Positions 10,523 to 35,700 of a stretch of DNA of 64,000 nucleotides are shown in pieces. A model generated the notes under the pieces. It was not told where the DNA came from and ran no database searches. It was given only the letters and a program-made list of their open reading frames with translations. The stretch's first letter is position 1. The number at the start of each line of letters is the position of its first letter. Position numbers and translations under genes: made by a program. This stretch comes from a virus: the IMG/VR virus record IMGVR_UViG_3300023184_000038, positions 64,001 to 128,000 of that record. One strand, given 5' to 3'.

Positions 10523-11679
10523 GAGCAAAAGAATTTATTGTTGAAACTGCTATGATGGGCAAGATTGCAGACTCGGGCAAAATTATTCGCATCTTGAAGA
10601 AAGCACACACCGTGCCATTCAGTGATGAAAAAAACTGGTTGCTGGTAGATACTGATCCTGGCAAAGGCAACAGTGGACTGGGTATCAAATGGATTCCGGC
10701 CGACACAAGATTTGAATGGGTAAGACCTTATAAAGATAGTGTAGATGAAAACTTGTCTCCGCAGACCATACACAAATTGGCAGACCACAAAGGTGTAAAA
10801 TGGGATGACGAACCCAGTTTCCTTCAACTTACCAAACGATTAACAGGCAAAGAACATTTGGATGACTTAGATCAAGCAGGGTTGAACAAAGTTAAAAAAC
10901 ATTTGGATGGGTTGCAAGGGGTGGCGGAAGGCGGTGCCGAAACAAGTTGGTCCAATGACACCGATACAATTACACTACAGGATATTTTAGAATTAACCAA
11001 ACATATTAAACAAATAAATTTACCAATTAACGATAATCTAAAGAGTAAACTACTTCATTGGGAAGGTAACCCAGAAGAAATAGAAAGAGTTAATCAAGTA
11101 ACGGTGTCTAACCAATTTCCTATTTTAATTATGGTGGATGAGCAAGGTCAAATAGCCTGGATACTCGATGGCAACCATAGACTACACAAGGCAATACAAT
11201 CACAAGCAAAAACAATACCTGCTAAACTTATTAGACCCAGCAACCTTGATGATAAAGCAAAGAAAATATTTAATATAAAAGAGCAAGGTGTGGCGGAAGG
11301 CTCCGAGAACAATAATACAACAGCACAAAAAATATTCTTTGCTCGTAGTAATAAAACACCCAAAGGATGGAGTTATGACCATGTTGGATTTATAACTCAA
11401 GATGGAAAACAAATTCAAATGAGTGGGCATAAAGGCAATGATGTATATGTCACTAACGATGTGACTGATGATCCGGAGTTTCCTAAACAAAATATCAAAA
11501 TTGTATCATTATCAAAACCAGTATCGGTGCCTACAACTAACTCAGTAGGAGCAGAAAATTGTGGAACATTTGTGGCAAATGTATTACAAGCCAATGGTAT
11601 AAAAGGTATTGATACACAAAAAATATATAGTGTGTTCAAAAAACCTCAAGAGCAAGGTGTGGCGGAAGGCTTAAAATAA
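10519..11679 (+). CDS. modular protein: ParB/Srx-like module + permuted papain-like module, separated by QGVAEG
   Basis: FPILIM...ILDGNHRL (ParB-like); DHVGF...ENCGTFVA (His before Cys); three QGVAEG linkers. Confidence 0.7.
   Translation: MRAKEFIVETAMMGKIADSGKIIRILKKAHTVPFSDEKNWLLVDTDPGKGNSGLGIKWIPADTRFEWVRPYKDSVDENLSPQTIHKLADHKGVKWDDEPSFLQLTKRLTGKEHLDDLDQAGLNKVKKHLDGLQGVAEGGAETSWSNDTDTITLQDILELTKHIKQINLPINDNLKSKLLHWEGNPEEIERVNQVTVSNQFPILIMVDEQGQIAWILDGNHRLHKAIQSQAKTIPAKLIRPSNLDDKAKKIFNIKEQGVAEGSENNNTTAQKIFFARSNKTPKGWSYDHVGFITQDGKQIQMSGHKGNDVYVTNDVTDDPEFPKQNIKIVSLSKPVSVPTTNSVGAENCGTFVANVLQANGIKGIDTQKIYSVFKKPQEQGVAEGLK
10915..10932 (+). repeat. QGVAEG linker repeat copy 1
   Basis: CAAGGGGTGGCGGAAGGC. 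Confidence 0.85.
11281..11301 (+). repeat. QGVAEG linker repeat copy 2
   Basis: GAGCAAGGTGTGGCGGAAGGC. Confidence 0.9.
11650..11670 (+). repeat. QGVAEG linker repeat copy 3
   Basis: GAGCAAGGTGTGGCGGAAGGC, identical to copy 2. Confidence 0.9.
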
Positions 11680-11680
11680 A

Positions 11681-12574
11681 ATGAGAGCAACTGAATTTAT
11701 TACCGAGGAACACGAGCCAACCCGAATCAAACTTGGTAACAACGATGCCGCTAAGGCTTGGATTGACCGAGTCTACACAAAATATCCACATACCATGCAA
11801 AACAACCATGTCATGGTTTGGGGGTCAGGCGATGACCAACAGTTTGCTATGTTTGAACTGATACCTAGTTTTAGTAAACGCGGTGCAGTTGAAGTCAAAT
11901 GGTTTCAAGCATATCCTTTACGACAAGGCGTTGGATCACGTGCCATGCAAGAATTGCAGGCTATGGCCCGCGAAGATGGCATTGCTCTTACTTTATTCCC
12001 CTGGGACAAAGGACAAGTAAGTCAAAGTAAACTAACCAAGTTCTATCGAGGTCAAGGGTTTAAGCCCACCGTGAAGGGCAGCAAAAGCATGGCATGGACA
12101 CCAGAACTAAATGAAGCCGAACTCAGCATAGATGTACCTAACGAAGAATGGTTACAGGAAAAGATAGACTATGCCAAACGCAAAGGCCGCAATAGTTTTG
12201 GCGTGCCTTATATGGGCAGCACCACTGCTTATGTTCAAGGAACACCGTTAAAAGCTCGTGTGATGAGATTGGCTTCTTTGCCGGGCATGAGGAACGAACA
12301 AACCAATGTGCGTCAAAATGACCTAAAGTGGTTAATGGATTACATGGACCGAACAGGTAAGTTACCACCTATGAAAACCAGTTCCGACGATGAGTACATG
12401 CCCTACATCATGGTAGCCTACAATGGTGAAGCATGGGTCAACGAAGGTAATCACCGTATCATGGCCGCATATAGATTAAACTGGCAGACCATGCCCATAC
12501 AACTTGCTTACTTTGATGGCGGAGAACGTGTGGAAAGTGGTGCCATGTATCCAGGCAAGATTGGACTAGCATGA
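11681..12574 (+). CDS. GNAT acetyltransferase-like + ParB-like modular protein
   Basis: MRATEFITE leader; RQGVGSRAM...KFYRGQGF (GNAT); LNE junction; VNEGNHRI (ParB-like). Confidence 0.7.
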   Translation: MRATEFITEEHEPTRIKLGNNDAAKAWIDRVYTKYPHTMQNNHVMVWGSGDDQQFAMFELIPSFSKRGAVEVKWFQAYPLRQGVGSRAMQELQAMAREDGIALTLFPWDKGQVSQSKLTKFYRGQGFKPTVKGSKSMAWTPELNEAELSIDVPNEEWLQEKIDYAKRKGRNSFGVPYMGSTTAYVQGTPLKARVMRLASLPGMRNEQTNVRQNDLKWLMDYMDRTGKLPPMKTSSDDEYMPYIMVAYNGEAWVNEGNHRIMAAYRLNWQTMPIQLAYFDGGERVESGAMYPGKIGLA

Positions 12575-14070
12575 GAGCAAACGAATTCATAACCGAAATA
12601 TTTCAACCTGGTAAGAAAAACTGGGAATGGATACGCAGAGATAACACATACGCCAGTGCTCGTTTTAGTGTTGGCGATAGAACTTATACTTGGCAGGCGC
12701 ATGGTGCGGAATCCGATAATGATGGCCCTACTCATTGGATTCTTGAATTTAGAATTGAACGAGAATTAGCCGATCCTGACAGGTTAGATGTTTGGGGTAA
12801 GACTGGTACAGGTAACTCAGCAGAAGTAATGTCAACCGCAGTTGATATTACCCGTGAATTCATTAAAGAGTATGGTGATAAAATATCAGAATTAACTTTT
12901 GATGCCAAAGAAGATTCTCGTATTGGATTGTATGCTAAGATGATTGCACGTTTACTACCTGGGTGGGAATTGAATCAAACATACAATAAAAACTTTGGTA
13001 TGGAGTTTCGTTTAACTAACCCTAAATCAAATGAATTTATCACAGAGAGTTCGCAACAAACTACCTTACGACAACTGTACGGTGGTAACTATCCAGATCG
13101 TGATGAAGAATTTTGGGACTATGTGTCATCTAGTGAATTTGATCAACCATTGACAGTTGAAACAATGGCAAAACATAAAGTATTGATTATGTTACTCAGT
13201 CAATATCGTGCAGAACATATTGATGACATAACTGATATGTTAGATGATGATCAACAAGCAATTGTACAATCATATGTTAATGATCCGGCACTAGCAAGCA
13301 AAATAATAGTTGTTGCTAACAATAGAATCATTGATGGTAATCATCGTGCATTAGCTGCTGCAATCAAAGGTGTACCTATTAATTATGTTGATTTATCTGA
13401 ATTAGAAGAAGAACCGATAGATGAAGCAGAAACAGACACACCAAACGCTAGAGAGATATCAAAACAACTAAGAGCGGTAGGTTATTCACATGTAGGGTCT
13501 GGTGCTGATGCTACTGTTTGGGCAAAAGATGATAGTCATGTAATTAAGATATTGATGCCAGAAGATGCAGGTAGTAAAGCAGAACAAGTATTTCGTAAGT
13601 TTTATGAATTTTCAATGAGCCGGCAAGATTTGGCGTGTGTTCCTAGATTCAATGAAGTAACCACGATTGATATTAACGGTAAAGATTATACTCAGATTGA
13701 GATGGAGAAATTATCTTCTATTCCCAAAGGTTCGTTTGTTGAGGGTTTAATTTGGTTCCTGAGTGATTACACTAGTTCTCCTGAATCATGGGAAACAATA
13801 GAGCGTGAACTAGCAGACCCAAACACATGGAAAAATTACATCCCACAATATGCTAATGCATTTGCTAAAGTTTGGCAAAGTCTACTAGAAAATCCTGCAA
13901 GTAAAAAAACATATGCTATGTACAAACAGCTATATACTGTAATGCAAATATTATATAACACAGGCAGAATCAACAAATTTGGATGGGATTTGCATACAGC
14001 AAATGTCATGCTAAGACAGAACGGACAACCGGTAATAATTGATCCGTGGTTTAGTGAAGGTACATCCTAA
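12571..14070 (+). CDS. three-module protein: unknown + ParB-like + kinase-like
   Basis: MRANEFITE leader and an internal NEFITE copy; IIDGNHRA; GSGADATV...VIKI...WDLHTANVM...IIDPW. Confidence 0.7.
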   Translation: MRANEFITEIFQPGKKNWEWIRRDNTYASARFSVGDRTYTWQAHGAESDNDGPTHWILEFRIERELADPDRLDVWGKTGTGNSAEVMSTAVDITREFIKEYGDKISELTFDAKEDSRIGLYAKMIARLLPGWELNQTYNKNFGMEFRLTNPKSNEFITESSQQTTLRQLYGGNYPDRDEEFWDYVSSSEFDQPLTVETMAKHKVLIMLLSQYRAEHIDDITDMLDDDQQAIVQSYVNDPALASKIIVVANNRIIDGNHRALAAAIKGVPINYVDLSELEEEPIDEAETDTPNAREISKQLRAVGYSHVGSGADATVWAKDDSHVIKILMPEDAGSKAEQVFRKFYEFSMSRQDLACVPRFNEVTTIDINGKDYTQIEMEKLSSIPKGSFVEGLIWFLSDYTSSPESWETIERELADPNTWKNYIPQYANAFAKVWQSLLENPASKKTYAMYKQLYTVMQILYNTGRINKFGWDLHTANVMLRQNGQPVIIDPWFSEGTS

Positions 14071-14087
14071 TATATATGACTTATAAG

Positions 14088-14178
14088 AACACCCTTAGGA
14101 CCAGTACTAGTTACTGTAAGTGTGAGGCGGCTGCTGCCTATATAACCCAATTCGCTACTGGGAAGTATAAAGTGAGCA
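14088..14178 (+). ncRNA. candidate structured RNA (unassigned)
   Basis: intergenic stretch with three hairpins (CAGTA/TACTG, AGGCGG/CTGCCT, CCCA/TGGG) and a possible closing CTTA/TGAG helix. Confidence 0.4.
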
Positions 14179-14197
14179 TTAATTTGATAAATACATA

Positions 14198-14770
14198 ATG
14201 CGTTATACTGAGTTTATTATTGAATCTCCTGCAACTGAATTGGCTAAAAAATTGCCATCTTTGGATAAACATGATTATGATACTATTGATAGATTAATGT
14301 CAACTATAGCAAAAAGACATCGTATTACTGGTAAAGCATTGCACGATTTGTTTATTAAAAAATATCATCGGTCACCGGATGATTGGATTAAAAGCAAATT
14401 GGATGAAAATACATCATTGGATATTCAAGACGAAGTGGATAAGTTTTGTAATTGGGCTTGTCAAAAATTAAAAATTAAAACTAAACCGTACATAGAATTA
14501 AGTATGGATACTGAAGAAGCACAAAATAATCATCATACCGGAGGTCATGTCCCCGGTGAAAATAATATATGGGTTTATGCAAAAAATCGTAATTTAGTAG
14601 ATATTTTACGCACGGTGTTTCATGAATTGGTTCACGTACGGCAAGGTGAATTAAATATGATTACCCCAGGATCTAGTTATCCGGGTAGCCCAATTGAAGC
14701 CTTAGCAGATTTAATGGCCGGAAAATATATTAAAATTTACGGCAAACAACATCATAATATTTTTCAATAA
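14198..14770 (+). CDS. zincin-like metallopeptidase domain protein
   Basis: MRYTEFIIE leader; RTVFHELVH (HExxH) and downstream EALA. Confidence 0.7.
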   Translation: MRYTEFIIESPATELAKKLPSLDKHDYDTIDRLMSTIAKRHRITGKALHDLFIKKYHRSPDDWIKSKLDENTSLDIQDEVDKFCNWACQKLKIKTKPYIELSMDTEEAQNNHHTGGHVPGENNIWVYAKNRNLVDILRTVFHELVHVRQGELNMITPGSSYPGSPIEALADLMAGKYIKIYGKQHHNIFQ

Positions 14771-14821
14771 ATTGAAATAATATACTACGCCCGTTTTTAT
14801 CATAAAAGGTAAACAAACTTA

Positions 14822-14850
14822 TTGACTTTAAGATCCTACTACTGTATAAT
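14822..14850 (+). promoter_or_regulatory. sigma70-type promoter
   Basis: TTGACT-17 nt-TATAAT. Confidence 0.8.
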
Positions 14851-14873
14851 CTATCATTAACAAGGAGATTGCA

Positions 14874-15134
14874 ATGAGTGATAGAATTTTTAGTGGCGCA
14901 GAAAAAATTAAACTTACCCAGTTGGTAAATGAGGGCATGAATGTATTGAATGAAATTGAAACACTCAACGGAGGTTTGTCCGATACAGTCAAAGCAGTTG
15001 CTGAAGAAATGGAAATTAAAGCAAGTACTTTGAAAAAAGCAATCAAAATTGCCCATAAAGCAAGTTTAGGGCAAACTAATAAAGACCATGACGAACTTAA
15101 CCACATTCTTGAACTAGTAGGCAAAACACTTTGA
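14874..15134 (+). CDS. small dsDNA-binding protein (T4 DsbA/GapR-like)
   Basis: 86-aa helical protein (LSDTVKAVAEEMEIKASTLKKAIKIAHK) directly upstream of the polymerase. Confidence 0.55.
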   Translation: MSDRIFSGAEKIKLTQLVNEGMNVLNEIETLNGGLSDTVKAVAEEMEIKASTLKKAIKIAHKASLGQTNKDHDELNHILELVGKTL

Positions 15135-17845
15135 GTTATGTAGATGCTGTATTAGATAAAAATACAGATAAAATAATTGTAATTGAAAGAGATGGCAAGG
15201 GTGTACGCCAGTACAATGAATTCCCTGCCAATTATGTACTTTACTTTACTGACCCTAAAGGCAAACATCGTAGTTTATATGGTGATCCGGTAACTAGGTT
15301 CTCAACACGAAGTCGCGGCGAATTTGAAAAAGAACGTAGAATTCTTGCTAATAAAAAAATCTTTGAAAGCGATATTAACCCTATTTTTCGTTGTTTGAGC
15401 GAAAACTATTTAAACGTTGACGCACCAAAATTACATACTTGCTTTTTTGACATCGAAGTTGATTTCAATTCAGAAAAAGGATTTAGTCCAACTAGCGATC
15501 CCTTCAATCCGGTTACTGCTATCTCACTTTACTTAGATTGGTTAGGTCAATTAGTTACATTAGTAATTGCTCCCACACATATGAGTAGTGAGACCGCACA
15601 ACAGATTACTAGTGAAATTGAAAATACAATGTTATTCACTAATGAAATAGAAATGTTTGAAACATTTTTTACATTGATTGAAGATGCTGATGTATTAACT
15701 GGATGGAACTCTGAGGGATACGATATACCATATATGGTTAATCGTGTTACTAGGATAATGAGTAAAAATGATACTAGAAAATTTTGTTTATTGGGACAAC
15801 TTCCCAAACCTAGAGTATATGAAAGATATGGTAAAGAGGAAACTACATATGACTTAGTTGGACGAGTACATTTAGACTATTTACAACTTTACAAAAAATA
15901 TAACTATGAATCTAGACATAGTTATAAACTTGATGCCATTGGTGAAATGGAAGTAGGGGAAAATAAAACTCAATACGAAGGTACACTTGATCAATTATAT
16001 AACAAAGACTTTAAAAAGTTTATTGAATATAATAGGCAAGATACAATGTTATTAGTTAAAATTCATAATAAACTACAGTTTTTAGAACTTGCTAATCAAA
16101 TAGCACATGAAAATACTGTGTTGTTACCAACGGTTATGGGCTCGGTTGCTATGATTGAAATGGCAATTATGAATGAGGCTCATGCCCGCGGAGTAGTTAT
16201 TCCAGATAAAAAACGAAAGGTCGAAAATGCAGAAGAAACACAACCAGCGGCAGGTGCCTATGTTGCTACTCCCAAAACGGGAATTCATGAATGGGTCGGC
16301 GCAGTGGACATCAATTCGCTCTACCCCTCAGCAATCCGCGCTCTTAACATGTCCCCGGAAACCATTGTTGCTCAGGTCAGACAAACTTTAACTGATCAGT
16401 ACATGCTTGATAAAAGTCAACGCTTGGCACGTGAGAAAAAACGACATAAAGAAGGTGATGATGATGTTACTGGCAGTGTGCTTTGGGAAGGGCTATTTGG
16501 TAGTTTGGAATATACCTCAATTTTAAATCAAGATAGAGGTATGATGCTAACATTGGACTATGCTGACGGAACTGAAGTTGAAATGAGTGCGGCCGAAATA
16601 TGGAAATTACTATTTGATAGTAATAATCCATATATGATTAGTGCTAATGGTACTATCTTTACTCACGCAAATGAAGGTGTTATTCCAGGATTATTATCTA
16701 GGTGGTACTCGGATAGAAAAGTAATGCAGAAAAAACTTAAAGAAGCCACAACTACTGAAGATAAAGATTATTGGGATAAACGTCAACTTGTTCGTAAGAT
16801 TTTGTTGAACTCTGCATATGGTGCATTGTTGAATGAACATTGCAGATTCTATGACAAACGTATTGGTCAAAGTGTAACATTATGTGGTAGGCAAATTGTA
16901 AAACACATGAGTGCTCACATTAATGAAATTATCACAGGTAACTACGATTTCACAGGTCAAGGAATAGTGTATGGTGATACTGACTCTTGTTATTTTAGTG
17001 CATGGCCTGCAGTAAAAACAGAAGTTGAAGAAGGTAAAATGGAATGGTCAAAGGAAACTTGTATCGGATTGTATGATGGTATTGCCGAGCAAATTAACAT
17101 AGAGTTTCCTGTTTTTATGGAAAAAGCATTTCATTGTCCAAGAAAAAACGGATCTATTATTCGTGCTGGAAGAGAACTAGTAGCAGACCGTAGTTTGTTT
17201 ATTACTAAAAAAAGGTATGCAGTAAACATTTATGATAAAGAAGGTAAACGTTTAGATAAAGATGGTAAAATGGGATATATTAAAGCCATGGGTCTTGATT
17301 TAAAACGTGCTGATACCCCTAAATATGTACAAGAATTTTTAATGTCGGTATTAACACTGGTTTTATCTGGCAAGCAACGTGATGATGTTATAGAAATTAT
17401 TAAAACCTTTAAGCATGAAATGAGCCTGCAGGAAAGTTGGACTAAAGGTAGTCCGAAATCAGTTAACAAACTTACTGCATATGGCAATAAAGAAGAAAAT
17501 AGTAAAACAGGTAAGGCAAATATGCCAGGACATGTACGTGCTGCACTAAACTGGAATACTTTACGTAGAGTGCATAATGATAACTATTCAATGAAAATAA
17601 TGGATGGTATGAAAGTAGTTGTATGTAAATTAAAACAAAATCCAATGGGATATACTTCTATAGCATATCCTACTGATGAATTAAGATTACCGGTCTGGTT
17701 CAAAGAATTACCATTTAATGATGATGGAATGGAACGCACATTGATTGATGAAAAAATAGAAAATTTATTGGGCGTATTGTCTTGGGATTTACGTAGTAGC
17801 ACTGATACTAAATCAACTTTTGATGATTTATTTTCATTTGGTTAA
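15131..17845 (+). CDS. polB: family B DNA polymerase with 3'-5' exonuclease
   Basis: FFDIEV, GWNSEGYDIPY, YNRQD exonuclease motifs; DINSLYPS, KILLNSAYG, YGDTDS, KKRY polymerase motifs; TTG start. Confidence 0.95.
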   Translation: MSYVDAVLDKNTDKIIVIERDGKGVRQYNEFPANYVLYFTDPKGKHRSLYGDPVTRFSTRSRGEFEKERRILANKKIFESDINPIFRCLSENYLNVDAPKLHTCFFDIEVDFNSEKGFSPTSDPFNPVTAISLYLDWLGQLVTLVIAPTHMSSETAQQITSEIENTMLFTNEIEMFETFFTLIEDADVLTGWNSEGYDIPYMVNRVTRIMSKNDTRKFCLLGQLPKPRVYERYGKEETTYDLVGRVHLDYLQLYKKYNYESRHSYKLDAIGEMEVGENKTQYEGTLDQLYNKDFKKFIEYNRQDTMLLVKIHNKLQFLELANQIAHENTVLLPTVMGSVAMIEMAIMNEAHARGVVIPDKKRKVENAEETQPAAGAYVATPKTGIHEWVGAVDINSLYPSAIRALNMSPETIVAQVRQTLTDQYMLDKSQRLAREKKRHKEGDDDVTGSVLWEGLFGSLEYTSILNQDRGMMLTLDYADGTEVEMSAAEIWKLLFDSNNPYMISANGTIFTHANEGVIPGLLSRWYSDRKVMQKKLKEATTTEDKDYWDKRQLVRKILLNSAYGALLNEHCRFYDKRIGQSVTLCGRQIVKHMSAHINEIITGNYDFTGQGIVYGDTDSCYFSAWPAVKTEVEEGKMEWSKETCIGLYDGIAEQINIEFPVFMEKAFHCPRKNGSIIRAGRELVADRSLFITKKRYAVNIYDKEGKRLDKDGKMGYIKAMGLDLKRADTPKYVQEFLMSVLTLVLSGKQRDDVIEIIKTFKHEMSLQESWTKGSPKSVNKLTAYGNKEENSKTGKANMPGHVRAALNWNTLRRVHNDNYSMKIMDGMKVVVCKLKQNPMGYTSIAYPTDELRLPVWFKELPFNDDGMERTLIDEKIENLLGVLSWDLRSSTDTKSTFDDLFSFG

Positions 17846-17852
17846 ACTGGTG

Positions 17853-17881
17853 TTGACTTGTGCAAAAAAATCCACTATAAT
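17853..17881 (+). promoter_or_regulatory. sigma70-type promoter
   Basis: TTGACT-17 nt-TATAAT. Confidence 0.75.
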
Positions 17882-17931
17882 ACACATAGAAAATACCTAA
17901 ATAGTATTACAATTTTTAATAAAGGAAAAAC

Positions 17932-18657
17932 ATGAAAGATAATTTAAAAGATTTAGTTGCTTATACACATGGCATTGAAGGAATAGATACTGTAAAAATT
18001 ACTGGTACAGATACATCAACTATTATTAATGCAGCCGCCGAAGATAAAACCGTTATAATTATCGGGGAATTTAAAAATCCTATCGCTGATTTTATTGGTA
18101 CGTTTGGTATGCCTAATTTATCTAAATTAAAGACAATACTTGGATTTGATAATTATGATGAAAATGCTAAGATCAATGTTACGCAAAGTACAACTGCTCC
18201 GGGAACTCCTGTAGGAATTCACTTTGAATCTAAAGACGGCGACTTTATTAATGATTATCGGTTTATGAGTAAAGCCTTAGCAGAAGAAAAAGTGCGTGTA
18301 ATGAAATTTAGAGGTACTACTTGGGACGTAAGTTTTGAACCCACTATCGCAGGAATAATGCGTTTAACAAAACAACAACAATCTGCCGACGATGTAAATT
18401 TTACATTGAAAGTTGAAAAGGGAGATTTAAAAATGTACTTTGGTGATTTAGGAACTCACTCAGGTAATTGTCTATTTCATCCCATGGTTACAGGCACGTT
18501 GACTAATGTATGGAAATTTCCTGTTAAACAATTTCTTGCTATTATAAATTTAGCAGGAGATAAAATGATTCGCATTGCAGATGCCGGAGCATTAGAAATA
18601 GTAATTGACAGTGGAATTGCAAAATACACATATCTATTACCAGCAGTTATTAAATAA
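17932..18657 (+). CDS. probable sliding clamp (gp45/PCNA-like)
   Basis: 241 aa, follows polB, C-terminal YTYLLPA typical of clamps. Confidence 0.65.
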   Translation: MKDNLKDLVAYTHGIEGIDTVKITGTDTSTIINAAAEDKTVIIIGEFKNPIADFIGTFGMPNLSKLKTILGFDNYDENAKINVTQSTTAPGTPVGIHFESKDGDFINDYRFMSKALAEEKVRVMKFRGTTWDVSFEPTIAGIMRLTKQQQSADDVNFTLKVEKGDLKMYFGDLGTHSGNCLFHPMVTGTLTNVWKFPVKQFLAIINLAGDKMIRIADAGALEIVIDSGIAKYTYLLPAVIK

Positions 18658-18693
18658 CATGATTTTTGAGCAAGATAATCTAGCAAATAAAAA

Positions 18694-19062
18694 ATGATAA
18701 AGAACATTAATCGTCACGGTAAGTATATGGATGTAATTGGCGTTAATACTAACAATCACATTGTTACCTACGGTGGAGCACAAGGTGTAGGCAATCTAAG
18801 ATTCAATACTAATAATCAAAATATGGAAATATATGACGGTAATAGTTGGGCTGCACTCCATATGGGATATGTTACGGTAGGACTAACTCCTGACGCAGAA
18901 TCATTACTTGATTGGGCTAGAAAAAAGCGTGATGAAGAAATGGAATTAGAAGCACTAGCCGAAACTAATTCTACTATCAAAGACTTGATGGATACTATTA
19001 AGCAAAAGCAAGAACAATTAGAAATAGTTAAAATCTTGATTGAGAAAGAAGTAACAGTTTGA
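18694..19062 (+). CDS. hypothetical phage protein
   Basis: GNLRFNTNNQNMEIYDG motif plus C-terminal coiled coil. Confidence 0.6.
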   Translation: MIKNINRHGKYMDVIGVNTNNHIVTYGGAQGVGNLRFNTNNQNMEIYDGNSWAALHMGYVTVGLTPDAESLLDWARKKRDEEMELEALAETNSTIKDLMDTIKQKQEQLEIVKILIEKEVTV

Positions 19063-20675: not shown

Positions 20676-20676
20676 T

Positions 20677-21338: not shown

Positions 21339-21350
21339 AGAAAGAACCCA

Positions 21351-25548: not shown

Positions 25549-25552
25549 TATA

Positions 25553-25617
25553 ACCGGTCTCTTATGGGCTCATCCCGGTATAAAAATTCTGCGTCCTATG
25601 CTATAATAACATAGGAG
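25553..25617 (+). promoter_or_regulatory. candidate preQ1-I-like riboswitch upstream of queD
   Basis: ACCGG-loop-CCGGT stem, ATAAAAA tail, then TCCTATG/CATAGGA hairpin covering the SD. Confidence 0.45.
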
Positions 25618-25623
25618 AACAAC

Positions 25624-26770: not shown

Positions 26771-26786
26771 TTTGGTAATCTTAGTA

Positions 26787-26815
26787 TTGAGTTTCTATTA
26801 AATCTGTGCTATAAT
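26787..26815 (+). promoter_or_regulatory. sigma70-type promoter for queE
   Basis: TTGAGT-17 nt-TATAAT with extended TG. Confidence 0.65.
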
Positions 26816-26851
26816 GTCAAAAAATGTTTATATCATTAAAGGAATAGTACA

Positions 26852-27700
26852 ATGGCAAAATTAAAAGTAGCAGAACTCTTCTATAGTATACAGGGAGAAG
26901 GTAGATATATGGGTGTCCCTTCAGTCTTTCTACGCACATTTGGATGTAACTTCAAATGTGCAGGATTTGGTATGCCTAAGGGTGAACTAAGTCGTGAAGT
27001 AGAAGATATTGCTGCCAATATACATTTATATAATCAGTATACGCAACTTCCATTAGTTAGTACTGGATGCGATAGTTATGCTAGTTGGGATCCAAGATTC
27101 AAAGACTTGAGTCCAGTACTTACTACTGATAGTATTGTTGACAGTATTATGTCTATGCTTCCACACAATCGTTGGATGGAAGAACATCTGGTTATCACAG
27201 GAGGTGAACCTTTACTAGGATGGCAGCGTAGTTATATTGATTTACTTTCACATGACAAGATGAAAGGGTTACAAGAACTAACTTTTGAAACAAATGGTAC
27301 TCAATCTCTACAACAAGAATTGAAAAGTTATTTGCAGCAGTGGGGAATTAATCGTTCTAGAGGTGCAATTACATTTAGTGTTAGTCCTAAACTTAGTATT
27401 AGTGGTGAGAAGTGGGAAGAAGCAATATGTCCTGACATCATTAATGAGTACTCACAAACGGGTCGTACATATTTAAAGTTTGTTGTTGCAACTAAACAAG
27501 ATGTAGAGGAAGCACAAACAGCCGTTAATCAATATCGTACTAATGGATTTAGAGGGCATGTGTATTTGATGCCATGTGGTGGCGTTGAAAGTGTGTATAA
27601 CTTGAATGCAAAAAATGTTGCACTTGAAGCAATGCGTTTAGGCTGGCGTTATAGTGATAGACTTCAAGTCCCACTGTTCAAAAACGAGTGGGGAACTTGA
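26852..27700 (+). CDS. queE: 7-carboxy-7-deazaguanine synthase (radical SAM)
   Basis: ELFYSIQGEG, FLRTFGCNFKC...CDS, ITGGEPLL, FETNGT, SVSPK. Confidence 0.9.
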   Translation: MAKLKVAELFYSIQGEGRYMGVPSVFLRTFGCNFKCAGFGMPKGELSREVEDIAANIHLYNQYTQLPLVSTGCDSYASWDPRFKDLSPVLTTDSIVDSIMSMLPHNRWMEEHLVITGGEPLLGWQRSYIDLLSHDKMKGLQELTFETNGTQSLQQELKSYLQQWGINRSRGAITFSVSPKLSISGEKWEEAICPDIINEYSQTGRTYLKFVVATKQDVEEAQTAVNQYRTNGFRGHVYLMPCGGVESVYNLNAKNVALEAMRLGWRYSDRLQVPLFKNEWGT

Positions 27701-27945
27701 TGCCCTCAATTGATTGGACTACACAATCAGCTAGTGACTATCATTTCAAACAAAGAACTGTGGGTAAACAATTAAAGTTTACTCTAATACCTAGACTATG
27801 CCATATAACAAAGCGTAGAATATGGCTAGAGTATGCATATTGTGTTACTGCAATGTACAGAAGCGGTGATATTAACTTTGATTATGAAAATCGTTGGTAT
27901 AGTAAAGATGAATATTTAATAGCAAGATTAAGGGATTTAATATGA
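27700..27945 (+). CDS. hypothetical protein
   Basis: ORF overlapping the queE stop. Confidence 0.5.
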   Translation: MPSIDWTTQSASDYHFKQRTVGKQLKFTLIPRLCHITKRRIWLEYAYCVTAMYRSGDINFDYENRWYSKDEYLIARLRDLI

Positions 27946-28121
27946 AGTTTGAAATGCGTTGGCTTGTGGTTGAGGCGCCATCTGGCCCTGAAAAGATATT
28001 GCAATATCGTTATGAAAGAGAAATAACAGATTACAGTATAGAAAACCCAAGAACAGGATCCTTTGTTAAAAGAAATGAGTTAACTGATTGGATTACTGTT
28101 ACAACAGTAGATGAGGTATAA
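27942..28121 (+). CDS. small hypothetical protein (not in ORF track)
   Basis: 59-aa ORF MKFEMRWLVV... fills the gap and overlaps the previous stop. Confidence 0.5.
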   Translation: MKFEMRWLVVEAPSGPEKILQYRYEREITDYSIENPRTGSFVKRNELTDWITVTTVDEV

Positions 28122-28122
28122 A

Positions 28123-29484
28123 ATGCGAACATATAATAAACGAATAGCATTTCTAATTAGTGACCAGCATTTTATTACGCATGGTGGGATAGGGCAGTTT
28201 GCTAAAGGTTTTACTGAATTAGGAGACCGCATCAATTGGAAAGTTGACATTATCTTAGACAAAGAACCAACAAACGATTTATCTATACTAGTTAAATCAT
28301 TGGGTGCAAATATCATATATACAGATTCTGGTCTACGCTATTCTGACCATACTGCTACGTTTGCTTTTAAAGATAGTATTAATTTTGAAAAAATGGTTAA
28401 TTTCAGAAAAAGCATTATGCTTGCGTTAGAAACTAATATTTATGATATGATTATTTGTAACACGCAAGAAGCAATGAGTGCAGCATATTCTATGGGGTTA
28501 GGAAAATATATTCCAGTAGTATTTTACACACATTCGTATAGTATGGTTTTTAGAGATGAGCAAGATTTTAGTGATGTTTGTATAGATGAATATCATAACT
28601 TTTTCAATAAGCATATGGAACTATCTCATAGTTTTGTTGGAACTCAAAGTCAAAAGAATGTTGATGAGATGACTAAGTATGGTGCAAAGAATGTATCACT
28701 ATTGCGTATGCCATTAAGTGAACGAGAATTGTTAGTACGCAATGATAATCCGCGCAAAGGTGTATTGTTTATTGGACGATGGGAAGAACGAAAAAATCCA
28801 GAAGCATATATTCGTGTTATGAAAGAATGTAAATTGCCTTGCAGAGTAATGACCAATAAAACAGGTGCTAAAAAATTTGAAAAAGCATTTGCTGATAATA
28901 ACATCACAGATTATGAAATCAAAATAAGTATTATTGGCAAAGAAAAAGTAGATTTTATTAAAAGTTGTAGTGTATTTTTTATGCCAGCATTAGGAGAAAA
29001 CTATCCGTTTGCGTTTAGTGAATGTTTGGGACATATGCCATGTGTTGTGTTAGATAATCAAGATTGGTCTAATAATTTTGACGAAAAATATTTTTATAAA
29101 GAAAAATTAAACAATGTATCAATGTTAATTCAACGATTATACAATACTACAAATTACTACGATACCGGAGCATTAGAATATATTAAATTACTAGATGACG
29201 ATACCGCTATAGGCTGGATAAAATTTTTAGATAAGTTTGTTTCTAAAAAAAGTAATACTAATTCAGCAAAAATAAATTCGACAGAAACAGTATGTTATCA
29301 AGACTATATTAAAGAATTAAACAGAGGGCATTTAGCCCGTGAAGATATTGAAAGTGTATTGGCAAATCGTCATAAATTTATTATCAATGTATATACAGAT
29401 GATAATACGTATTTAAGTAAAGATCCAAAATTTAAGCCAATAGAAGAACAGTCACCTAGTGTGTCATTATTTGAATGGGTATGA
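28123..29484 (+). CDS. GT-B (family 4-like) glycosyltransferase
   Basis: HGGIGQF, LFIGRWEERKNP, MPALGENYPFAFSE. Confidence 0.75.
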   Translation: MRTYNKRIAFLISDQHFITHGGIGQFAKGFTELGDRINWKVDIILDKEPTNDLSILVKSLGANIIYTDSGLRYSDHTATFAFKDSINFEKMVNFRKSIMLALETNIYDMIICNTQEAMSAAYSMGLGKYIPVVFYTHSYSMVFRDEQDFSDVCIDEYHNFFNKHMELSHSFVGTQSQKNVDEMTKYGAKNVSLLRMPLSERELLVRNDNPRKGVLFIGRWEERKNPEAYIRVMKECKLPCRVMTNKTGAKKFEKAFADNNITDYEIKISIIGKEKVDFIKSCSVFFMPALGENYPFAFSECLGHMPCVVLDNQDWSNNFDEKYFYKEKLNNVSMLIQRLYNTTNYYDTGALEYIKLLDDDTAIGWIKFLDKFVSKKSNTNSAKINSTETVCYQDYIKELNRGHLAREDIESVLANRHKFIINVYTDDNTYLSKDPKFKPIEEQSPSVSLFEWV

Positions 29485-30317
29485 TGAAAAAAGTATTAAT
29501 AACAGGTAATTCAGGTTATATCGGTAGTCATCTTTCCAAGATGTTAGCAGATTCTTATGAAGTATATGGGTTAGATATTACCCTTCCACAGACAGATCGG
29601 CTTAAAGATTGGTATAATATTGATATTCGTAAATTATTTACTATTGACCAAGAATTTGATGCAGTAATACATTTAGCAGCCTTAGTTAATGTAGGTGAAA
29701 GTGAGCAGCAACCCATAAGTTATTATATTACCAATTTGAATGGGACGATGAATGTCATCAATAAGATTAAGACAAAGAATTTTATTTTTGCAAGTACTGG
29801 CGCAGCAGCGGGATGTGAGAGTGCATATGGTATTAGTAAACGTGCTGCGGAAGATGTGGTGCGTGAATATTGCACTATACATAATCCCAAAGATTACACA
29901 ATATTTAGGTTCTATAACGTAATTGGTAGTGATGGTTTTTTGCCAACTAATCCAGACGGGTTGATGTATAATTTAATGAAATCAAAAGAAAAGGGCGAAT
30001 TTACTATTTTTGGGAATGACTATGATACCCGAGATGGAACTTGCATACGTGATTATGTACATGTTAATGAGATATGTGAAGCATTAGGTAGTGCTATTGA
30101 GAGGCCAAGTAATCAAATAGAATGTTTAGGGCATGGAGTAGGTTATACTGTTGCCGAGATAGTTAATACGTTCAAAAAAGTAAACAATATACCTAATATT
30201 AATTTACTTACTAAGATAGGTCCAAGAAGAAAGGGTGACTTAGCAGTATCTGTATTAGATAATGTGTCACCCTATATGAAGAATCTTTATACTTTAGAGC
30301 AGTTACTTAAAGTTTAA
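29481..30317 (+). CDS. galE: NAD-dependent epimerase (UDP-glucose 4-epimerase-like)
   Basis: TGNSGYIGSH, HLAA, YGISK (YxxxK), DGTCIRDYVHV. Confidence 0.8.
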   Translation: MMKKVLITGNSGYIGSHLSKMLADSYEVYGLDITLPQTDRLKDWYNIDIRKLFTIDQEFDAVIHLAALVNVGESEQQPISYYITNLNGTMNVINKIKTKNFIFASTGAAAGCESAYGISKRAAEDVVREYCTIHNPKDYTIFRFYNVIGSDGFLPTNPDGLMYNLMKSKEKGEFTIFGNDYDTRDGTCIRDYVHVNEICEALGSAIERPSNQIECLGHGVGYTVAEIVNTFKKVNNIPNINLLTKIGPRRKGDLAVSVLDNVSPYMKNLYTLEQLLKV

Positions 30318-32059
30318 GAAGCCCATTTTTTATAGGGCTTTGGTAATTTATTTTCCGCCACACCTTGCTTTCTAATCTTAACATTACCCCTCATTCGGTC
30401 AACACTTTCAGGAGTAGGAATATTTAGGCTACGGAACTGAGCTGTGCCTTGTGCAGCAACTGGTCCTCCATGTAAACTATCACGCTCTTCACCTTTGCTG
30501 TTACGCCACTTACCGTCAGTGCCTTGTGTCAGTGGTTCTTTTGTTTGATAGTCTCGTGGAACAAACGGTGCATTTGCACTAGGCTCTGGACTTGGGCTAG
30601 GTGATGAAGTAGATGCTGCTTTCCAGCCAGCCGCGTTCATTGCGTCTACAGTTTGATCACCGGGCTGTTTGCCGTCAGCTTTTCCATTTACAATTCGCAA
30701 ATACGAAGCCATTCCATACTGTGTACCAGAGCCTGCTGGCTTTTCAATCCAGTATGTTTTGCTTTGTGTATCAAGAACAGCTGGATAATTCTGACCATTA
30801 TAGTTAGTAGTTGTTAAAGTAAATCCATTACCTAAATCTTTTTCATTTGCCGGCGGTCCTCCAGCAGTGGCACCAGTATTACTAAAATCATTTATATTAG
30901 CTCCTGGTGGCAATCGTGGACGAATTGGTGCTTCAGCAGAGGCACCAGTATTACTAAAATCATTTATATTAGCTCCTGGTGGCAATCGTGGACGAATTGG
31001 TGCTTCATCTTCTTCTGTCACACCTTGCTTCTTATATACATCCTTGAATGCTTTATTAAAAATGTCAGTAGCTTGCTTAGTTGTTTTTTTAGCAGTGGTT
31101 GGCGTGGCAGTATGTTGTGGGTCAGAGTCGCTATAGTGGTCTCTTGAACCATATGTGCTATGACTTCTTGTGCCATCAGATTTCATACGTCCTTTGGGTT
31201 CTTGACTATGCATTTCCGCCACATCAGATTCTGGTTTCTTCTGCCCGTACATGTCTTTTCCATCTTTATCATAATGAGTTGGGGGAAAATCATACGCTTT
31301 ATTATGAATATCTTGCCTGGCCCATCTATTCATCTCACGCGGCCGGGGAATTAATTTTACCGTAGGCGTATGCTTATCTTTCAATGCCCAGTTATTCATT
31401 CCTTCCGCCACACCTTGCTCTAAACGATTCTGCGCTTTAGCAAATCCTGCAACACTGCGGTTGGCTTTTTCTGGACTACGCTTTGTTGGGTCTGCTTTAT
31501 GTTTCATAGAGTCGGAACTTACTTTTTGTTGATAACTCTTTAGTGCATTATTGCTAACTTCCGCCACACCTTGCTCGGCCATTCCTAACTTACGCATTAC
31601 CGCCGGAGAAGCGATTTTGTTTTTTATACAATTGGGATATTTTTTCCCAAACATAGTTTTCATGCCTTCTTTGTGATATCCTTTCCAGCAAGCTTCGTCT
31701 AAACTTTTCTGTGAGTGATCTCCGTGTGTTTCACACATACCACAGTCTTCACAGACCATTTCCATCTCAATGCTTTCGTTGTGTTTCTTTTTACCAGCGC
31801 AATGAGCCTTTTGACTAAATCCTTTGGGATGTGAGCAATTGATACTGCTTTTATATTTTTGACTCCATCCCTCATTATAGTTATCATACTTATTACGAAC
31901 AGCATCTAACTTTTTTTCACTAGCACCTTCACGTCCTGCTTTGGCTAATGCCTTCATACCATTTTTGCCATACTTTTCATTGCCCTTGGCAGCACGACTC
32001 ATTGGTCGTTTATTCTCTATTACTTTTTCTGTGCTAACAATTATGTGATTTATTTTCAT
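30314..32059 (-). CDS. modular polyprotein-like protein with five GVAE-type linkers
   Basis: 581 aa; EQGVAE x2, DVAE, KQGVTE, KQGVAE; short modules such as WSQKYKSSINC and CWKGY. Confidence 0.7.
   Translation of the reverse strand: MKINHIIVSTEKVIENKRPMSRAAKGNEKYGKNGMKALAKAGREGASEKKLDAVRNKYDNYNEGWSQKYKSSINCSHPKGFSQKAHCAGKKKHNESIEMEMVCEDCGMCETHGDHSQKSLDEACWKGYHKEGMKTMFGKKYPNCIKNKIASPAVMRKLGMAEQGVAEVSNNALKSYQQKVSSDSMKHKADPTKRSPEKANRSVAGFAKAQNRLEQGVAEGMNNWALKDKHTPTVKLIPRPREMNRWARQDIHNKAYDFPPTHYDKDGKDMYGQKKPESDVAEMHSQEPKGRMKSDGTRSHSTYGSRDHYSDSDPQHTATPTTAKKTTKQATDIFNKAFKDVYKKQGVTEEDEAPIRPRLPPGANINDFSNTGASAEAPIRPRLPPGANINDFSNTGATAGGPPANEKDLGNGFTLTTTNYNGQNYPAVLDTQSKTYWIEKPAGSGTQYGMASYLRIVNGKADGKQPGDQTVDAMNAAGWKAASTSSPSPSPEPSANAPFVPRDYQTKEPLTQGTDGKWRNSKGEERDSLHGGPVAAQGTAQFRSLNIPTPESVDRMRGNVKIRKQGVAENKLPKPYKKWAS
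30353..30369 (-). repeat. QGVAE linker repeat copy 4
   Basis: reverse complement AGCAAGGTGTGGCGGAA. Confidence 0.85.
30869..31007 (-). repeat. 72-nt tandem duplication
   Basis: EAPIRPRLPPGANINDFSNTGA twice, nucleotide-identical. Confidence 0.9.
31011..31030 (-). repeat. degenerate linker repeat copy 5 (KQGVTE)
   Basis: reverse complement AAGCAAGGTGTGACAGAAGA. Confidence 0.7.
31214..31225 (-). repeat. degenerate linker repeat copy 6 (DVAE)
   Basis: reverse complement GATGTGGCGGAA. Confidence 0.65.
31401..31420 (-). repeat. QGVAEG linker repeat copy 7
   Basis: reverse complement GAGCAAGGTGTGGCGGAAGG. Confidence 0.9.
31558..31576 (-). repeat. QGVAE linker repeat copy 8
   Basis: reverse complement GAGCAAGGTGTGGCGGAAG. 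Confidence 0.9.
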
Positions 32060-32538
32060 TTACTACCCTTTTCTTTATATGCCCAACGAGGTCCACCACC
32101 GCCGCCACCTGTTTCATTAAACCATGCATTGGATTCAGCTTGAGGTAAAGATTTTAGCCATTTAGAAAGCACTCCGGCCGCTGGGATCTTTCCATTTTTG
32201 TCAACAAATCTAGTGGAAATGACTCCTTTACGATTATCACCTATTTGCGGACTCAGCCAAACGCCATTCCACGCAGGTTCCCACATCATTATTTTTGTTG
32301 GATTGAATTCCCATTTTGTTGGGGAGAGCGGTCTAAGCAGATACACAGTTCCAGTTCCTCCGGGCGATGGGTTTGGAATTTCTTTATAATTACCTTTGGG
32401 AATTTGAATTGAAGCTTGACCAATCTTGCTTGCAGGGACCATATGGGTCCAGTTACTGGGTACAACATCATTACCACTACCTTTAGCAGTAGTTGCGGCA
32501 GGTGCTCCCTGAGATGCCAGCCACTCTAGTGGACTCAT
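32056..32538 (-). CDS. hypothetical protein
   Basis: 160-aa ORF with ATGA overlaps on both sides. Confidence 0.6.
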   Translation of the reverse strand: MSPLEWLASQGAPAATTAKGSGNDVVPSNWTHMVPASKIGQASIQIPKGNYKEIPNPSPGGTGTVYLLRPLSPTKWEFNPTKIMMWEPAWNGVWLSPQIGDNRKGVISTRFVDKNGKIPAAGVLSKWLKSLPQAESNAWFNETGGGGGGPRWAYKEKGSK

Positions 32539-34133
32539 TGTTCATCCTTCATCAGGAACCCTAGTTTTTTCATGGCTGTCAGATAGGCTCTCCACAATTT
32601 ATCAGGCCAACCGGTTGGTCGTTCGTAAGTCTTTCCGTCTACGGTTGCACGTTTTGGTAAAGGGCCAATATCTTGCACTGGATCTCCTGATTTACCCCAG
32701 GGCTTGTCGGTTGCTGCAACTGCCAGTGCTGGCAATTGACCAGACATAGCCTTCTCTCTAAGGTCTTCTATACCATCTATTGTTGCTTTTATATCTACTT
32801 TTAAATCGGCATCAGTAGTATCTAGTCCAAAATAACGCACAAGTATAGGCAACTGTTTTTTAATTATATCAACATCTTCTTTTGATATAAATCCAGCTGC
32901 TACAGCCTGTCCAACTGTACCTGCCTGCCCGGCTCCGCCTTCAGGTCCTCCGCCAGGCACACCGCCTTCAGGTCCTCCGCCAGGCACACCGCCTTCAGGT
33001 CCTCCGCCAGGCACACCGCCTTCAGGTCCTCCGGGAGGTTTATCTTCTGGTTTTTCTTCTTTGTTATTCCACCAGTCCCATAATGCTTTACCACCTTCAT
33101 ATGCTCCCCATAAGCCTAATCCCACGCTTCCAGCTTTTCCTAACTTACCAAGACCACTACCAATACTACGCATTGGATTACGGGCAGCAGCTGCTGCGGT
33201 CCGTCTAGCAGTTGATTGAGCTGTAATTGCTGCCCTTCTAGCTGCCTGGGCTGCTCTATTCCTAGCGCCGGGACTGCCACCTCGGACTAGTCTACCAAGT
33301 CCCCGAACTAACGGAGCAATAAATTCATTTAATTGTTCTGGCTTATTTTCAATTAAAATAGTAAAAATTCTAATTTGTTCAGCAGGTGAAAATTCATGTA
33401 GATTTTCAGATATCAGCCTACGTTTGAGAGTATTTCTACTTTCTGTTGTTACCTTATATTTTTTAAGAATATTGTTTAATTGAGTCAATGCAGTAGTTAA
33501 ATCAGCGGCAGGGCCGATATCTTTATCTGCATTTCCTGATTTACCCCTAAGATTGCCCGCTGCTGCAGCACCTGCTGCACCACCTGCAGTATTTGCACCC
33601 GCCTCGGCATCCATTCTATCAGCAATTCGTTCAGCTTGTGCTGCTGCGTCCGGTGCTTGATTTGCTGTAGTTGATGAATCAGTAGAAGAGTTTCCTGCTT
33701 GATTTGGTGTATCTGAGGAATCAGTAGAAGAGTTTCCTGCTTGATTTGGTGTATCTGGGTAAGGTTCAAACTTGTAAGGGGCAGAGTCAGTGCCGGGCCC
33801 AGGATCTTTACCGGCTTGGTTAGTTCCCGAAACACCGCGGCTAGTACCAAACGTTCCAAAATTAGAAGAAGCATTGTTAGGAGATGTGCTAAATATTGGT
33901 TCATCTGGCTTTCCACCAACTACACTCTTAACTGTATTCAAGTTGCTTGTACCAACGTTTAGTTCTTTTGCTTTTGCTTGATCGTCGGGGTCTTTAAAAT
34001 AACTTAGTGGAGGCTTTTCACCGGGCATTCTGGCTAAAATATACGGATCTTTACGGTCTGCATTACCCAACCATTTTTCTTGTTCGGGAGTAGGAGTCCA
34101 TTCTTCCCGCAAAATTAATTCATTTATTTTCAT
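32535..34133 (-). CDS. low-complexity putative internal virion protein
   Basis: MKINELILRE leader; Gly/Pro/Ala repeats; GATAAATA upstream. Confidence 0.65.
   Translation of the reverse strand: MKINELILREEWTPTPEQEKWLGNADRKDPYILARMPGEKPPLSYFKDPDDQAKAKELNVGTSNLNTVKSVVGGKPDEPIFSTSPNNASSNFGTFGTSRGVSGTNQAGKDPGPGTDSAPYKFEPYPDTPNQAGNSSTDSSDTPNQAGNSSTDSSTTANQAPDAAAQAERIADRMDAEAGANTAGGAAGAAAAGNLRGKSGNADKDIGPAADLTTALTQLNNILKKYKVTTESRNTLKRRLISENLHEFSPAEQIRIFTILIENKPEQLNEFIAPLVRGLGRLVRGGSPGARNRAAQAARRAAITAQSTARRTAAAAARNPMRSIGSGLGKLGKAGSVGLGLWGAYEGGKALWDWWNNKEEKPEDKPPGGPEGGVPGGGPEGGVPGGGPEGGVPGGGPEGGAGQAGTVGQAVAAGFISKEDVDIIKKQLPILVRYFGLDTTDADLKVDIKATIDGIEDLREKAMSGQLPALAVAATDKPWGKSGDPVQDIGPLPKRATVDGKTYERPTGWPDKLWRAYLTAMKKLGFLMKDEQ
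32935..33033 (-). repeat. 27-nt tandem repeat x3.7 (GGPEGGVPG)
   Basis: CCGCCTTCAGGTCCTCCGCCAGGCACA repeated. Confidence 0.9.
33676..33757 (-). repeat. 42-nt tandem duplication (DTPNQAGNSSTDS)
   Basis: two identical 40-nt copies. Confidence 0.9.
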
Positions 34134-34158
34134 TTTAGTTTACCTTGTTTAGTATTTA

Positions 34159-35700
34159 TCAATGCCTTAACAATAGAGTACTTAATACACCTGGATCGTT
34201 TGCACTAACATCCCCTTCACCGGGAGCAACAATAACATTGTACTTCATGCCAGTTGGAATTGAATTTCTTTTGGACATGTATTCAGTATAACTTAATATA
34301 CTTGATGCACTAATGCCGTATTCGTTTGCAATACGTTGTTTCATTTGAGCAAGAGCCTCAGGACTAGCAGGTTGCCATGCACCATCTGATGTCTTTTTCA
34401 AGTTACCCTTTTCATCCTTAGCCAACAAGTCATAAAATAGTTTTTCAGGCACTATACGACTATTCTTAGTTTTATCTAAGTTTGGATCTTGTGCCTTAAT
34501 TTGTTTCTCTTGTGTAGTATTAGCACCTTCACTCCAATTGATAATAAAGTTAGGCGGCTTATTAGCCAATGCTGCTCCGGCCATCTTAGTGTAAGCATAG
34601 AATCTAACATCAGGATGTTTAGCAGCCATTTTCAATGCTAAATCTAAGTATTCTGGACTAAAGAAGTCACCAGCATCATGCCAGCGAACTGTTGTTTGCC
34701 AACCATTAGGGAATTTCTTATCACCCTTTGCTGCTGCTTGTGCCTCAACAGAGATTTCATTGCTTAGTTGATTAAAGAAACCATCTGGATCATTCAATAG
34801 ATATGTTAGTATTCTTCCGTCACTTTGCCATGCTGCCTTAAATTGAATCTTACCGCCCTTCATGGCAAAGCACTCTACTTTACAAGAGCCAGCACCGGGA
34901 CAAGTATTAACAACGATTAACTTATTGGTTTGTTCATCTAGTGCAATTCCTACTAATGCTGCGAATCCAACATTAAAAAATTGTTCAAACTCTCCATTAC
35001 TATGCTTCATCTTTTCATTTTGCTTTAGTAACGCTTTGGGACGAATTGCCAATGTTTGTTTAATTTTATCCTCATCATATGTTTGACCATCTGGACTTAA
35101 GTATGTAACTACACTACTACGATGGATGTAAGGCATTTTGTATTTGTCTGTTTTAGTTTTACCAGTAGTATACTTTTCGTTGCCTTTCTTATCTACTTTG
35201 ATATTACCTGCTTTATCTAAGTCGGGTGTGCCAACGATACGTTTCATGTAGTCTTGAAACTCTTGGCTATCTAAATCACGAGTTTGTGCTGGCAGTTTGG
35301 TTGCTTCGTCTACATCTTTATACACACTACCTGCTTTATGTGCTGCATCAGTATAAGTACCGTGTAGTTTTTGTAACTGAGATAATGCTTTAGGTCCGTG
35401 AGTTTTTAAAATTTCAGCATATGCTTTGTCAGATGCTGCTTTGTTCGGGACTCTACCACCGCCGCCGTGATTTAAATAGGCTTTATGATATGCTGTCTTA
35501 GCATCAGATTCATTGATCTGTCCTAATCCAGATAGTTTACGAATTCTATCTAAGTGTTCTTGGCCTTCCGCCACACCTTCTTCTTCATCTGGCATATCAC
35601 TTGCACTAGCAACAAATTGTTGGGGAGTCATAATTTTTATTCCCGATGGTGCGCCTGCTAAATTAGAATTAGTTGACTCTAATATATCATTTATTTTCAT
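34159..35700 (-). CDS. gp88-like (radical-SAM-related) domain protein with processed-type N-terminus
   Basis: MKINDILE leader after GGAG; EGVAEG linker; TCPGAGSCKVEC, VRWHDAGDF, FYAYTK. Confidence 0.65.
   Translation of the reverse strand: MKINDILESTNSNLAGAPSGIKIMTPQQFVASASDMPDEEEGVAEGQEHLDRIRKLSGLGQINESDAKTAYHKAYLNHGGGGRVPNKAASDKAYAEILKTHGPKALSQLQKLHGTYTDAAHKAGSVYKDVDEATKLPAQTRDLDSQEFQDYMKRIVGTPDLDKAGNIKVDKKGNEKYTTGKTKTDKYKMPYIHRSSVVTYLSPDGQTYDEDKIKQTLAIRPKALLKQNEKMKHSNGEFEQFFNVGFAALVGIALDEQTNKLIVVNTCPGAGSCKVECFAMKGGKIQFKAAWQSDGRILTYLLNDPDGFFNQLSNEISVEAQAAAKGDKKFPNGWQTTVRWHDAGDFFSPEYLDLALKMAAKHPDVRFYAYTKMAGAALANKPPNFIINWSEGANTTQEKQIKAQDPNLDKTKNSRIVPEKLFYDLLAKDEKGNLKKTSDGAWQPASPEALAQMKQRIANEYGISASSILSYTEYMSKRNSIPTGMKYNVIVAPGEGDVSANDPGVLSTLLLRH
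35563..35580 (-). repeat. GVAEG linker repeat copy 9
   Basis: reverse complement GAAGGTGTGGCGGAAGGC. Confidence 0.85.

Follow-up and report, generated by a model that had tools for sequence, protein, structure and literature searches.

The 64,000-nucleotide (nt) window analyzed here, bases 64001 to 128000 of the 143,665-bp viral contig G000, contains three genes that share a short repeat: two polyprotein genes, of 386 and 581 residues, and a gp88-like gene (Table 1). The conserved core of the repeat, positions 2 to 16 of a 17-mer, is AAGGTGTGGCGGAAG (15 bp). It acts as a joint at which modules of about 45 to 200 amino acids (aa), here called cassettes, are gained, lost, replaced, and reordered singly, across the genes that hold them and across divergent phages.

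The window contains 8 matches to the 17-mer with no more than 3 mismatches, against 0.05 expected from sequence shuffles, and a ninth, eroded copy in the 581-aa gene. An earlier note on this DNA had counted the same nine copies in three genes, with coordinates that were nearly right (off by 0 to 3 nt). It had described correctly that all of them are in frame, that 8 of the 9 use the codons GTG GCG GAA while ordinary Val-Ala-Glu at 26867, 35914, and ~14997 is written with other codons, and that two of the genes end right after a final copy. Its view of every copy as a boundary between modules holds for the eroded ninth copy, a true edge, as the sequence L641 matches residues 277 to 349 of the 581-aa protein at 89%, spanning from that copy to the next, but not for the copy in the gp88-like gene, which is empty and joins no two cassettes. 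Two further copies lie upstream of the window, at 55388 and 56951 of G000.

Table 1. Features of the repeat-bearing genes and their surroundings. Positions are those of the window unless the contig is named.
Feature	Position	Strand	Remarks
Gene row with MRAxEFIxE-like leaders	9134-14770	+	Repeat in only one of them
386-aa polyprotein gene	10519-11679	+	Leader MRAKEFIVE, two modules at an eroded joint, two cassettes between repeats, tail of 3 residues
Eroded junction SVDE (protease-type site without DNA repeat)	10738-10749	+	Ortholog L206 has full QGVAE there
Repeat copy 1	10915-10931	+	1 mismatch to 17-mer
118-aa cassette, ParB/sulfiredoxin-like fold	10930-11283	+	Elsewhere 4 upstream and 4 downstream partners, all different
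Repeat copy 2	11284-11300	+	Exact 17-mer
118-aa cassette, probable permuted papain/NlpC-P60 (YiiX-like) fold	11299-11652	+	Conserved His and Cys; elsewhere 7 upstream and 5 downstream partners
Repeat copy 3	11653-11669	+	Exact 17-mer; then GLK and stop
581-aa polyprotein gene	30314-32059	-	Leader, modules joined at x-x-E, four repeat-bounded segments, 11-residue tail
Repeat copy near stop codon	30351-30367	-	2 mismatches
Repeat copy (QGVTE)	31011-31027	-	3 mismatches
62-aa cassette	31028-31213	-	89% identical to L641 cassette with different neighbors
Eroded repeat copy (SDVAE)	31212-31228	-	6 mismatches, GTG GCG GAA kept; still a cassette edge
Repeat copy	31401-31417	-	Exact
47-aa cassette	31418-31558	-	Homologs within gp88-like gene of other phages (L733, L700)
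Repeat copy	31557-31573	-	1 mismatch
gp88-like (PF17338) gene	34159-35733	-	Leader from ATG at 35700; hosts a cassette array in relatives
Repeat copy, empty site in gp88-like gene	35564-35580	-	Orthologs hold 1 to 5 cassettes there, site on each side
1118-aa leader protein gene, upstream of the window	G000:C1:54848-58204		Two to three repeat copies, two internal duplications

The joint is fixed as DNA. Exact-match scans yielded at least 120 loci in the viral collection and at least 120 in the metagenome collection. When one exact copy per locus was removed from 120 exact-match loci and the remaining in-frame GVAE peptides were counted, GGT GTG GCG GAA was found in 129 of 189 independent peptides, against 0.5% predicted by the codon usage of the same genes; the silent positions are thus conserved far beyond codon usage, in line with the earlier note. 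GCG makes up 85% of the Ala codons in the joint versus 7% across the same genes, and one of the 64 wobble combinations accounted for 59 of 137 matches in a scan that left three fourfold sites free. All cores within one mismatch (617 of 617) lie inside open frames and in the QGVAEG frame. Conservation around the joint ends at about 20 bp, and the site is non-palindromic. Among 190 single changes, 3 fall in the first two bases of the Glu codon and 2 in the middle base of the Val codon, which makes Glu and Val the least variable residues. Internal joints have fewer mismatches to the consensus than terminal joints (0.74 versus 1.15), as expected if exchange renews them. The core also reads as AAGG-8 nt-AAGG, a period of 12 bp; in L117, 12 bp are duplicated (QGVAEGVAE), and a 12-bp loss appears to have eroded TVEQGVAE to TVAE. 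A Chi-like hotspot was considered and rejected, as sub-motifs occur elsewhere in the genomes and the full core is found only at in-frame array positions.

The breakpoints of module gain and loss coincide with the repeat. Comparison of 741 unique sites gave 591 pairs homologous on one side and 12 on both sides, versus 99 one-sided and 76 two-sided pairs at random in-frame control positions, and identity drops from ~0.9 to ~0.3 within one or two codons of the core. The empty site of the gp88-like gene is filled in orthologous genes, and contig L609 is 98.4 to 98.6% identical to the 386-aa gene downstream and 94% upstream, yet both cassettes differ; the alleles L609/L218 and L206 of this gene have common ends and other cassettes. 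These promoterless, in-frame domain cassettes move one at a time, also between non-orthologous genes, with 1 to 9 cassettes per gene. A count over 300 arrays gave 615 cassettes, which fall into 430 families; of 346 adjacencies, only 2 are used again. L728 and L748 hold the same three cassettes at the same site as A-B-C and C-A-B, with cassettes 97 to 99.6% identical and flanks 79 to 85% identical, an arrangement expected from a circle of three cassettes that opened at a different joint, although it was seen once and could have arisen by other routes. L101 carries a head-to-tail cassette dimer, again a single case. Conserved silent sites, breakpoints, empty and filled alleles, and the circularly permuted array together give strong support to the role in DNA exchange that the earlier note had assigned to the element. 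Not every join uses the repeat: some cassettes meet at bare x-x-E junctions and others at short E|G microhomologies. The pattern seen is that old joints decay until only an x-x-E protease site is left, which fixes the module in place. In the database protein P0012, the ParB-like cassette of the window takes the place of the central part of a dCMP deaminase, and each of the two joins directly follows a Glu; off-target insertion or misassembly is possible.

The phages that carry the repeat are T4-type jumbo phages from freshwater, a clade with genomes of roughly 350 kb (340 to 375 kb in the repeat-bearing relatives) and a common cassette pool. The major capsid protein of one relative is 65 to 70% identical to the capsids of Vibrio phage 2.275.O, PA5oct, GAP32, CBB, and fHe-Yen9. 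The proteins of G000 have a median identity of only 49 to 52% with those of two near-complete relatives, and of 25 related records, 24 contain the core, among them every one of the 7 with a completeness of 90% or more. No copy with fewer than 2 mismatches was found in the cultured jumbo relatives (2.275.O, Phosso, PA5oct, CBB, and Yen9-03) or in cyanophage S-SRM01. A repeat encoded by the host was rejected, as the bacterial-genome matches listed were scattered single copies.

The three genes of the window and their neighbors share similar leaders, such as MRAKEFIVE and MKINDILE, which resemble a capsid-targeting pattern, so the polyproteins are probably packaged in the prohead. A strict regular expression for the leader picked out 84 of 266 genes, and many of the rest have starts that resemble it. 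In T4, internal proteins enter the prohead via a 10-residue leader, and the protease gp21 cuts after L/I-X-E (PMC9026906). A gp21-type protease (PF03420, as at locus L198) was found in 6 of 20 relatives, with an E value of about 1e-25, and had no match in G000, itself 41% complete; the capsid propeptide of one relative contains L-x-E sites with G or N as the next residue. The strongest clue lies inside cassettes, where L/I-x-E occurs at 0.53 of the expected frequency (z = -6.1), against about 1.2 for the controls L/I/V-x-D, -Q, and -K in cassettes and 1.13 for L/I-x-E in other small phage proteins, and the only sense that we find in this avoidance is that the cassettes meet the protease. In addition, a second hydrophobic-x-E follows right after the joint in 43 of 307 cassettes versus 12 expected. 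Cleavage at the joint is therefore likely, as judged from sequence: a gp21-type protease would cut after the joint Glu and release each module, and the freed modules would probably be injected against host defenses. The earlier note had proposed such a protease site, a role for which L/I-x-E depletion, the gp21-type protease of the relatives, and the constancy of Glu and Val speak indirectly; V-A-E is an extension of the T4 motif L/I-X-E. In P0006 (MRAKEFIVAE G) and P0008 (MRAKEFTK GVAE G), the joint follows the leader directly; it may therefore have arisen from the cut site of the leader itself.

Both cassettes of the 386-aa gene are also found elsewhere as stand-alone genes, and each is predicted as a single domain. 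The ParB-like one (pLDDT 91.5) matches sulfiredoxin with an E value of 3e-4 and a TM of about 0.4. The other (pLDDT 87.7) matches YiiX with a middling Z of 6.5 and a root mean square deviation of 3.1 over 99 aligned residues, so its predicted structure is probably a permuted papain/NlpC-P60 (YiiX-like) fold. Few of the 150 cassettes tested against Pfam gave a match, to 12 families that include GNAT, Pol-beta nucleotidyltransferase, DnaJ zinc finger, and several domains of unknown function.

The equal 369-nt spacing of both cassettes in the 386-aa gene is probably due to chance, since the cassettes of other alleles differ in length and lengths range widely. The adjoining leader gene (11681-12574) is modular too, with a homology break near residue 146 and without the repeat. 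On the minus strand, 30314-35733 forms a four-gene island within a plus-strand region, with a higher GC content (41 to 45%), flipped skew, and leader-like starts in three of the four genes. Tandem duplications within proteins are seen at 30855-30998 (72 nt, two copies), 32908-33038 (27 nt, four copies), and 33654-33753 (42 nt, two to three copies).

Variants of the core give some indication of how exchange proceeds. Those at positions 2 to 7 tend to go with the upstream module and those at positions 9 to 16 with the downstream module, with low sharing on both sides. An attC-like asymmetry, in which the site travels with one end of the cassette, was not seen (56 versus 43), and cassette lengths show no helical phasing. 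Shared variants are no more frequent between adjacent sites than between distant ones (9.2% versus 9.8%), and therefore insertion does not copy the target; target-site duplication was rejected on this ground. Searches for recombinase families used a loose first look, which divergent enzymes can escape. For the tyrosine recombinases PF00589 and phrog_1, G000 and as many as 7 relatives with a completeness of 90% or more gave no match, while the controls were positive; the host may supply such an enzyme. No tyrosine-recombinase motif was found in near-complete relatives. Searches of near-complete relatives (3 to 7) likewise gave no match to serine recombinases (PF00239 and PF07508), the IS110 transposase (PF01548), reverse transcriptase (PF00078), Cas1 (PF01867), or the Y1/HUH transposase (PF01797). 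RecT, ERF, and Rad52 (PF03837, PF04404, and PF04098) were also without a match in near-complete relatives. A RecA/UvsX-family gene is present in relatives, and gp32-, gp46/47-, and UvsW-like genes were assigned among the conserved proteins by reading the sequences.

The reading that we favor, with a probability of roughly 0.6, is short-homology exchange at a standard joint that maintains itself and doubles as a protease site. Recombination would take place inside the core by the general T4-type machinery of the phage (UvsX, gp32, gp46/47, and UvsW), through unequal crossing-over and through excised circles that re-enter at any other copy, and one joint sequence would stay fixed because a cassette with a drifted joint leaves the exchangeable pool. 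The graded sharing of variants fits crossovers spread over short homology. As for precedents, recombination at the PeSL repeats of phages RB49 and phi1 gives minicircles, detected by inverse PCR, without a known recombinase, and recombination patches of <50 bp suffice, the paper going no lower (PMC2839356). Several observations pull the other way. The core is short for UvsX, and its sharp edges, like its fixation across phages ~50% identical in protein, resemble recognition by a protein; the sharing of variants also fits a narrow crossover near positions 7 to 9, with variant sites mostly inactive. For V-x-E, cassette interiors show no clear depletion (1.02 over all cassettes and 0.74 in short ones), so that cutting at VAE may need the context of the linker, and G000 is estimated to be 41% complete.

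The strongest of the alternatives, though doubtful, is that a dedicated sequence-specific enzyme, an unrecognized recombinase or nickase encoded by phage or host, reads the 15-bp core, as in the integron-like model of the earlier note. It would account for a single rare-codon sequence held against AT drift across such divergent phages, for the sharp core edges, for variant sites that rarely propagate and the robust linkage switch near positions 7 to 9, and for a length floor near 140 nt, which would suit circles. Against it stand the empty searches for tyrosine and serine recombinases, IS110, reverse transcriptase, Cas1, and Y1, the missing tyrosine-recombinase motif, the non-palindromic site, and cassette lengths without helical phasing, together with insertions at non-consensus x-x-E junctions. 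The fuller version, in which an unrecognized recombinase class or a co-opted host enzyme would run the cassette system, with circles passing between jumbo phages and the site being also the cut site of the head protease, seems to us rather unlikely. Joins at bare x-x-E, the PeSL precedent, and the lack of any recombinase found are the reasons for which we prefer short-homology exchange. That the DNA is fixed for some other reason (translational pausing, mRNA processing, or a protein-binding site), with shuffling as a by-product of homology and selection on whole domains, is improbable. In its favor, every copy sits in frame on the coding strand, and cyanophage S-SRM01 has similar polyproteins without the repeat. 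Against it, internal joints are nearer the consensus than terminal ones, and genes that carry the repeat also tolerate eroded joints. We give very little weight to the idea that the peptide is only a flexible uncut spacer in a polyprotein that acts whole, like the recer-linked surface proteins discussed below. The preference of T4 gp21 for L/I-X-E (PMC9026906) and the scarcely depleted V-x-E would agree with it; the near constancy of the joint Glu, the avoidance of L/I-x-E in cassette interiors, sensible only if a protease meets them, and the excess of second hydrophobic-x-E sites after the joint would not.

The joint is a natural plug-and-play standard for protein domains: a single sequence preserves the reading frame, guides exchange, and probably also sets the product free. 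The at least 430 precisely bounded families, mostly unannotated and probably injected, make up a library of candidate anti-defense and host-takeover proteins. A 15-bp coding site that can be recoded silently offers a way to ask if T4-type phages depend on a dedicated recombinase to shuffle cassettes, a question left open in PMC2839356, and S-SRM01, which can be cultured, is a system in which to examine the cleavage idea. No published description of the motif or the concept was found in literature searches, most subscription papers being outside their reach.

Integrons use the IntI tyrosine recombinase with attI and attC sites, attC being an imperfect inverted repeat of 55 to 141 nt. The system described here is like them in its promoterless cassettes moved singly, its large common pool, reordering, and perhaps circles, and differs in its in-frame domain cassettes, with no integrase found, no attC hairpin, and no polarity seen toward the leader end. 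The integron-like reading of the earlier note holds as an analogy only: near-complete relatives gave neither a tyrosine nor a serine recombinase, conservation extends over only ~20 bp, and no fixed crossover could be demonstrated. Acquisition of the CRISPR type was rejected, since no Cas1 was found in near-complete relatives and insertion does not duplicate the repeat. Polyvalent proteins (PMC5512222) are also multidomain cargo with ParB-like, GNAT, and nucleotidyltransferase domains and predicted early delivery; their release is by embedded peptidases, no DNA joint is described, and the word "linker" is absent from that paper.

The likeness is closer to systems of T4-type phages. The internal proteins IPI-III and Alt of T4 (PMC9026906 and PMC3012670) have a leader ending in hydrophobic-x-E and diverse small cargo, and the clade has a gp21-family protease, but they are single small genes, whereas here many modules share one frame and one leader with a linker fixed as DNA. 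Cyanophage S-SRM01 (L834:1498-3327) has a Glu-delimited chain of 609 aa in which related modules are joined at x-x-E without the DNA repeat; this polyprotein, and the cultured relatives that lack the 15-mer, make the DNA-standardized joint a refinement, within one clade, of the T4 internal-protein principle. PeSL of RB49 and phi1 (PMC2839356 and PMC4122927) are likewise repeats that flank accessory modules, with insertion, deletion, and circularization and no dedicated recombinase known, and the gain and loss of modules at repeats between close relatives is common to PeSL and this joint. However, PeSL lie between genes, as elements of ~100 bp with a promoter and a terminator stem-loop, and transfer whole genes, while this joint is 15 bp long, coding, and in frame, and moves domains. 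In that respect it resembles recer, cited in PMC3467074 as 15-bp direct repeats within one gene for albumin-binding surface proteins, with in-frame domain shuffling proposed; ~15-bp in-frame direct repeats between domains are common to both, conserved as DNA in our case. Recer belongs to surface proteins of Gram-positive bacteria, with a few related domains and no known protease role, in contrast to at least 430 unrelated families here among phages. On our best reading, the joint would work like PeSL or recer shuffling applied to the internal proteins of T4-type phages, and not like an integron.

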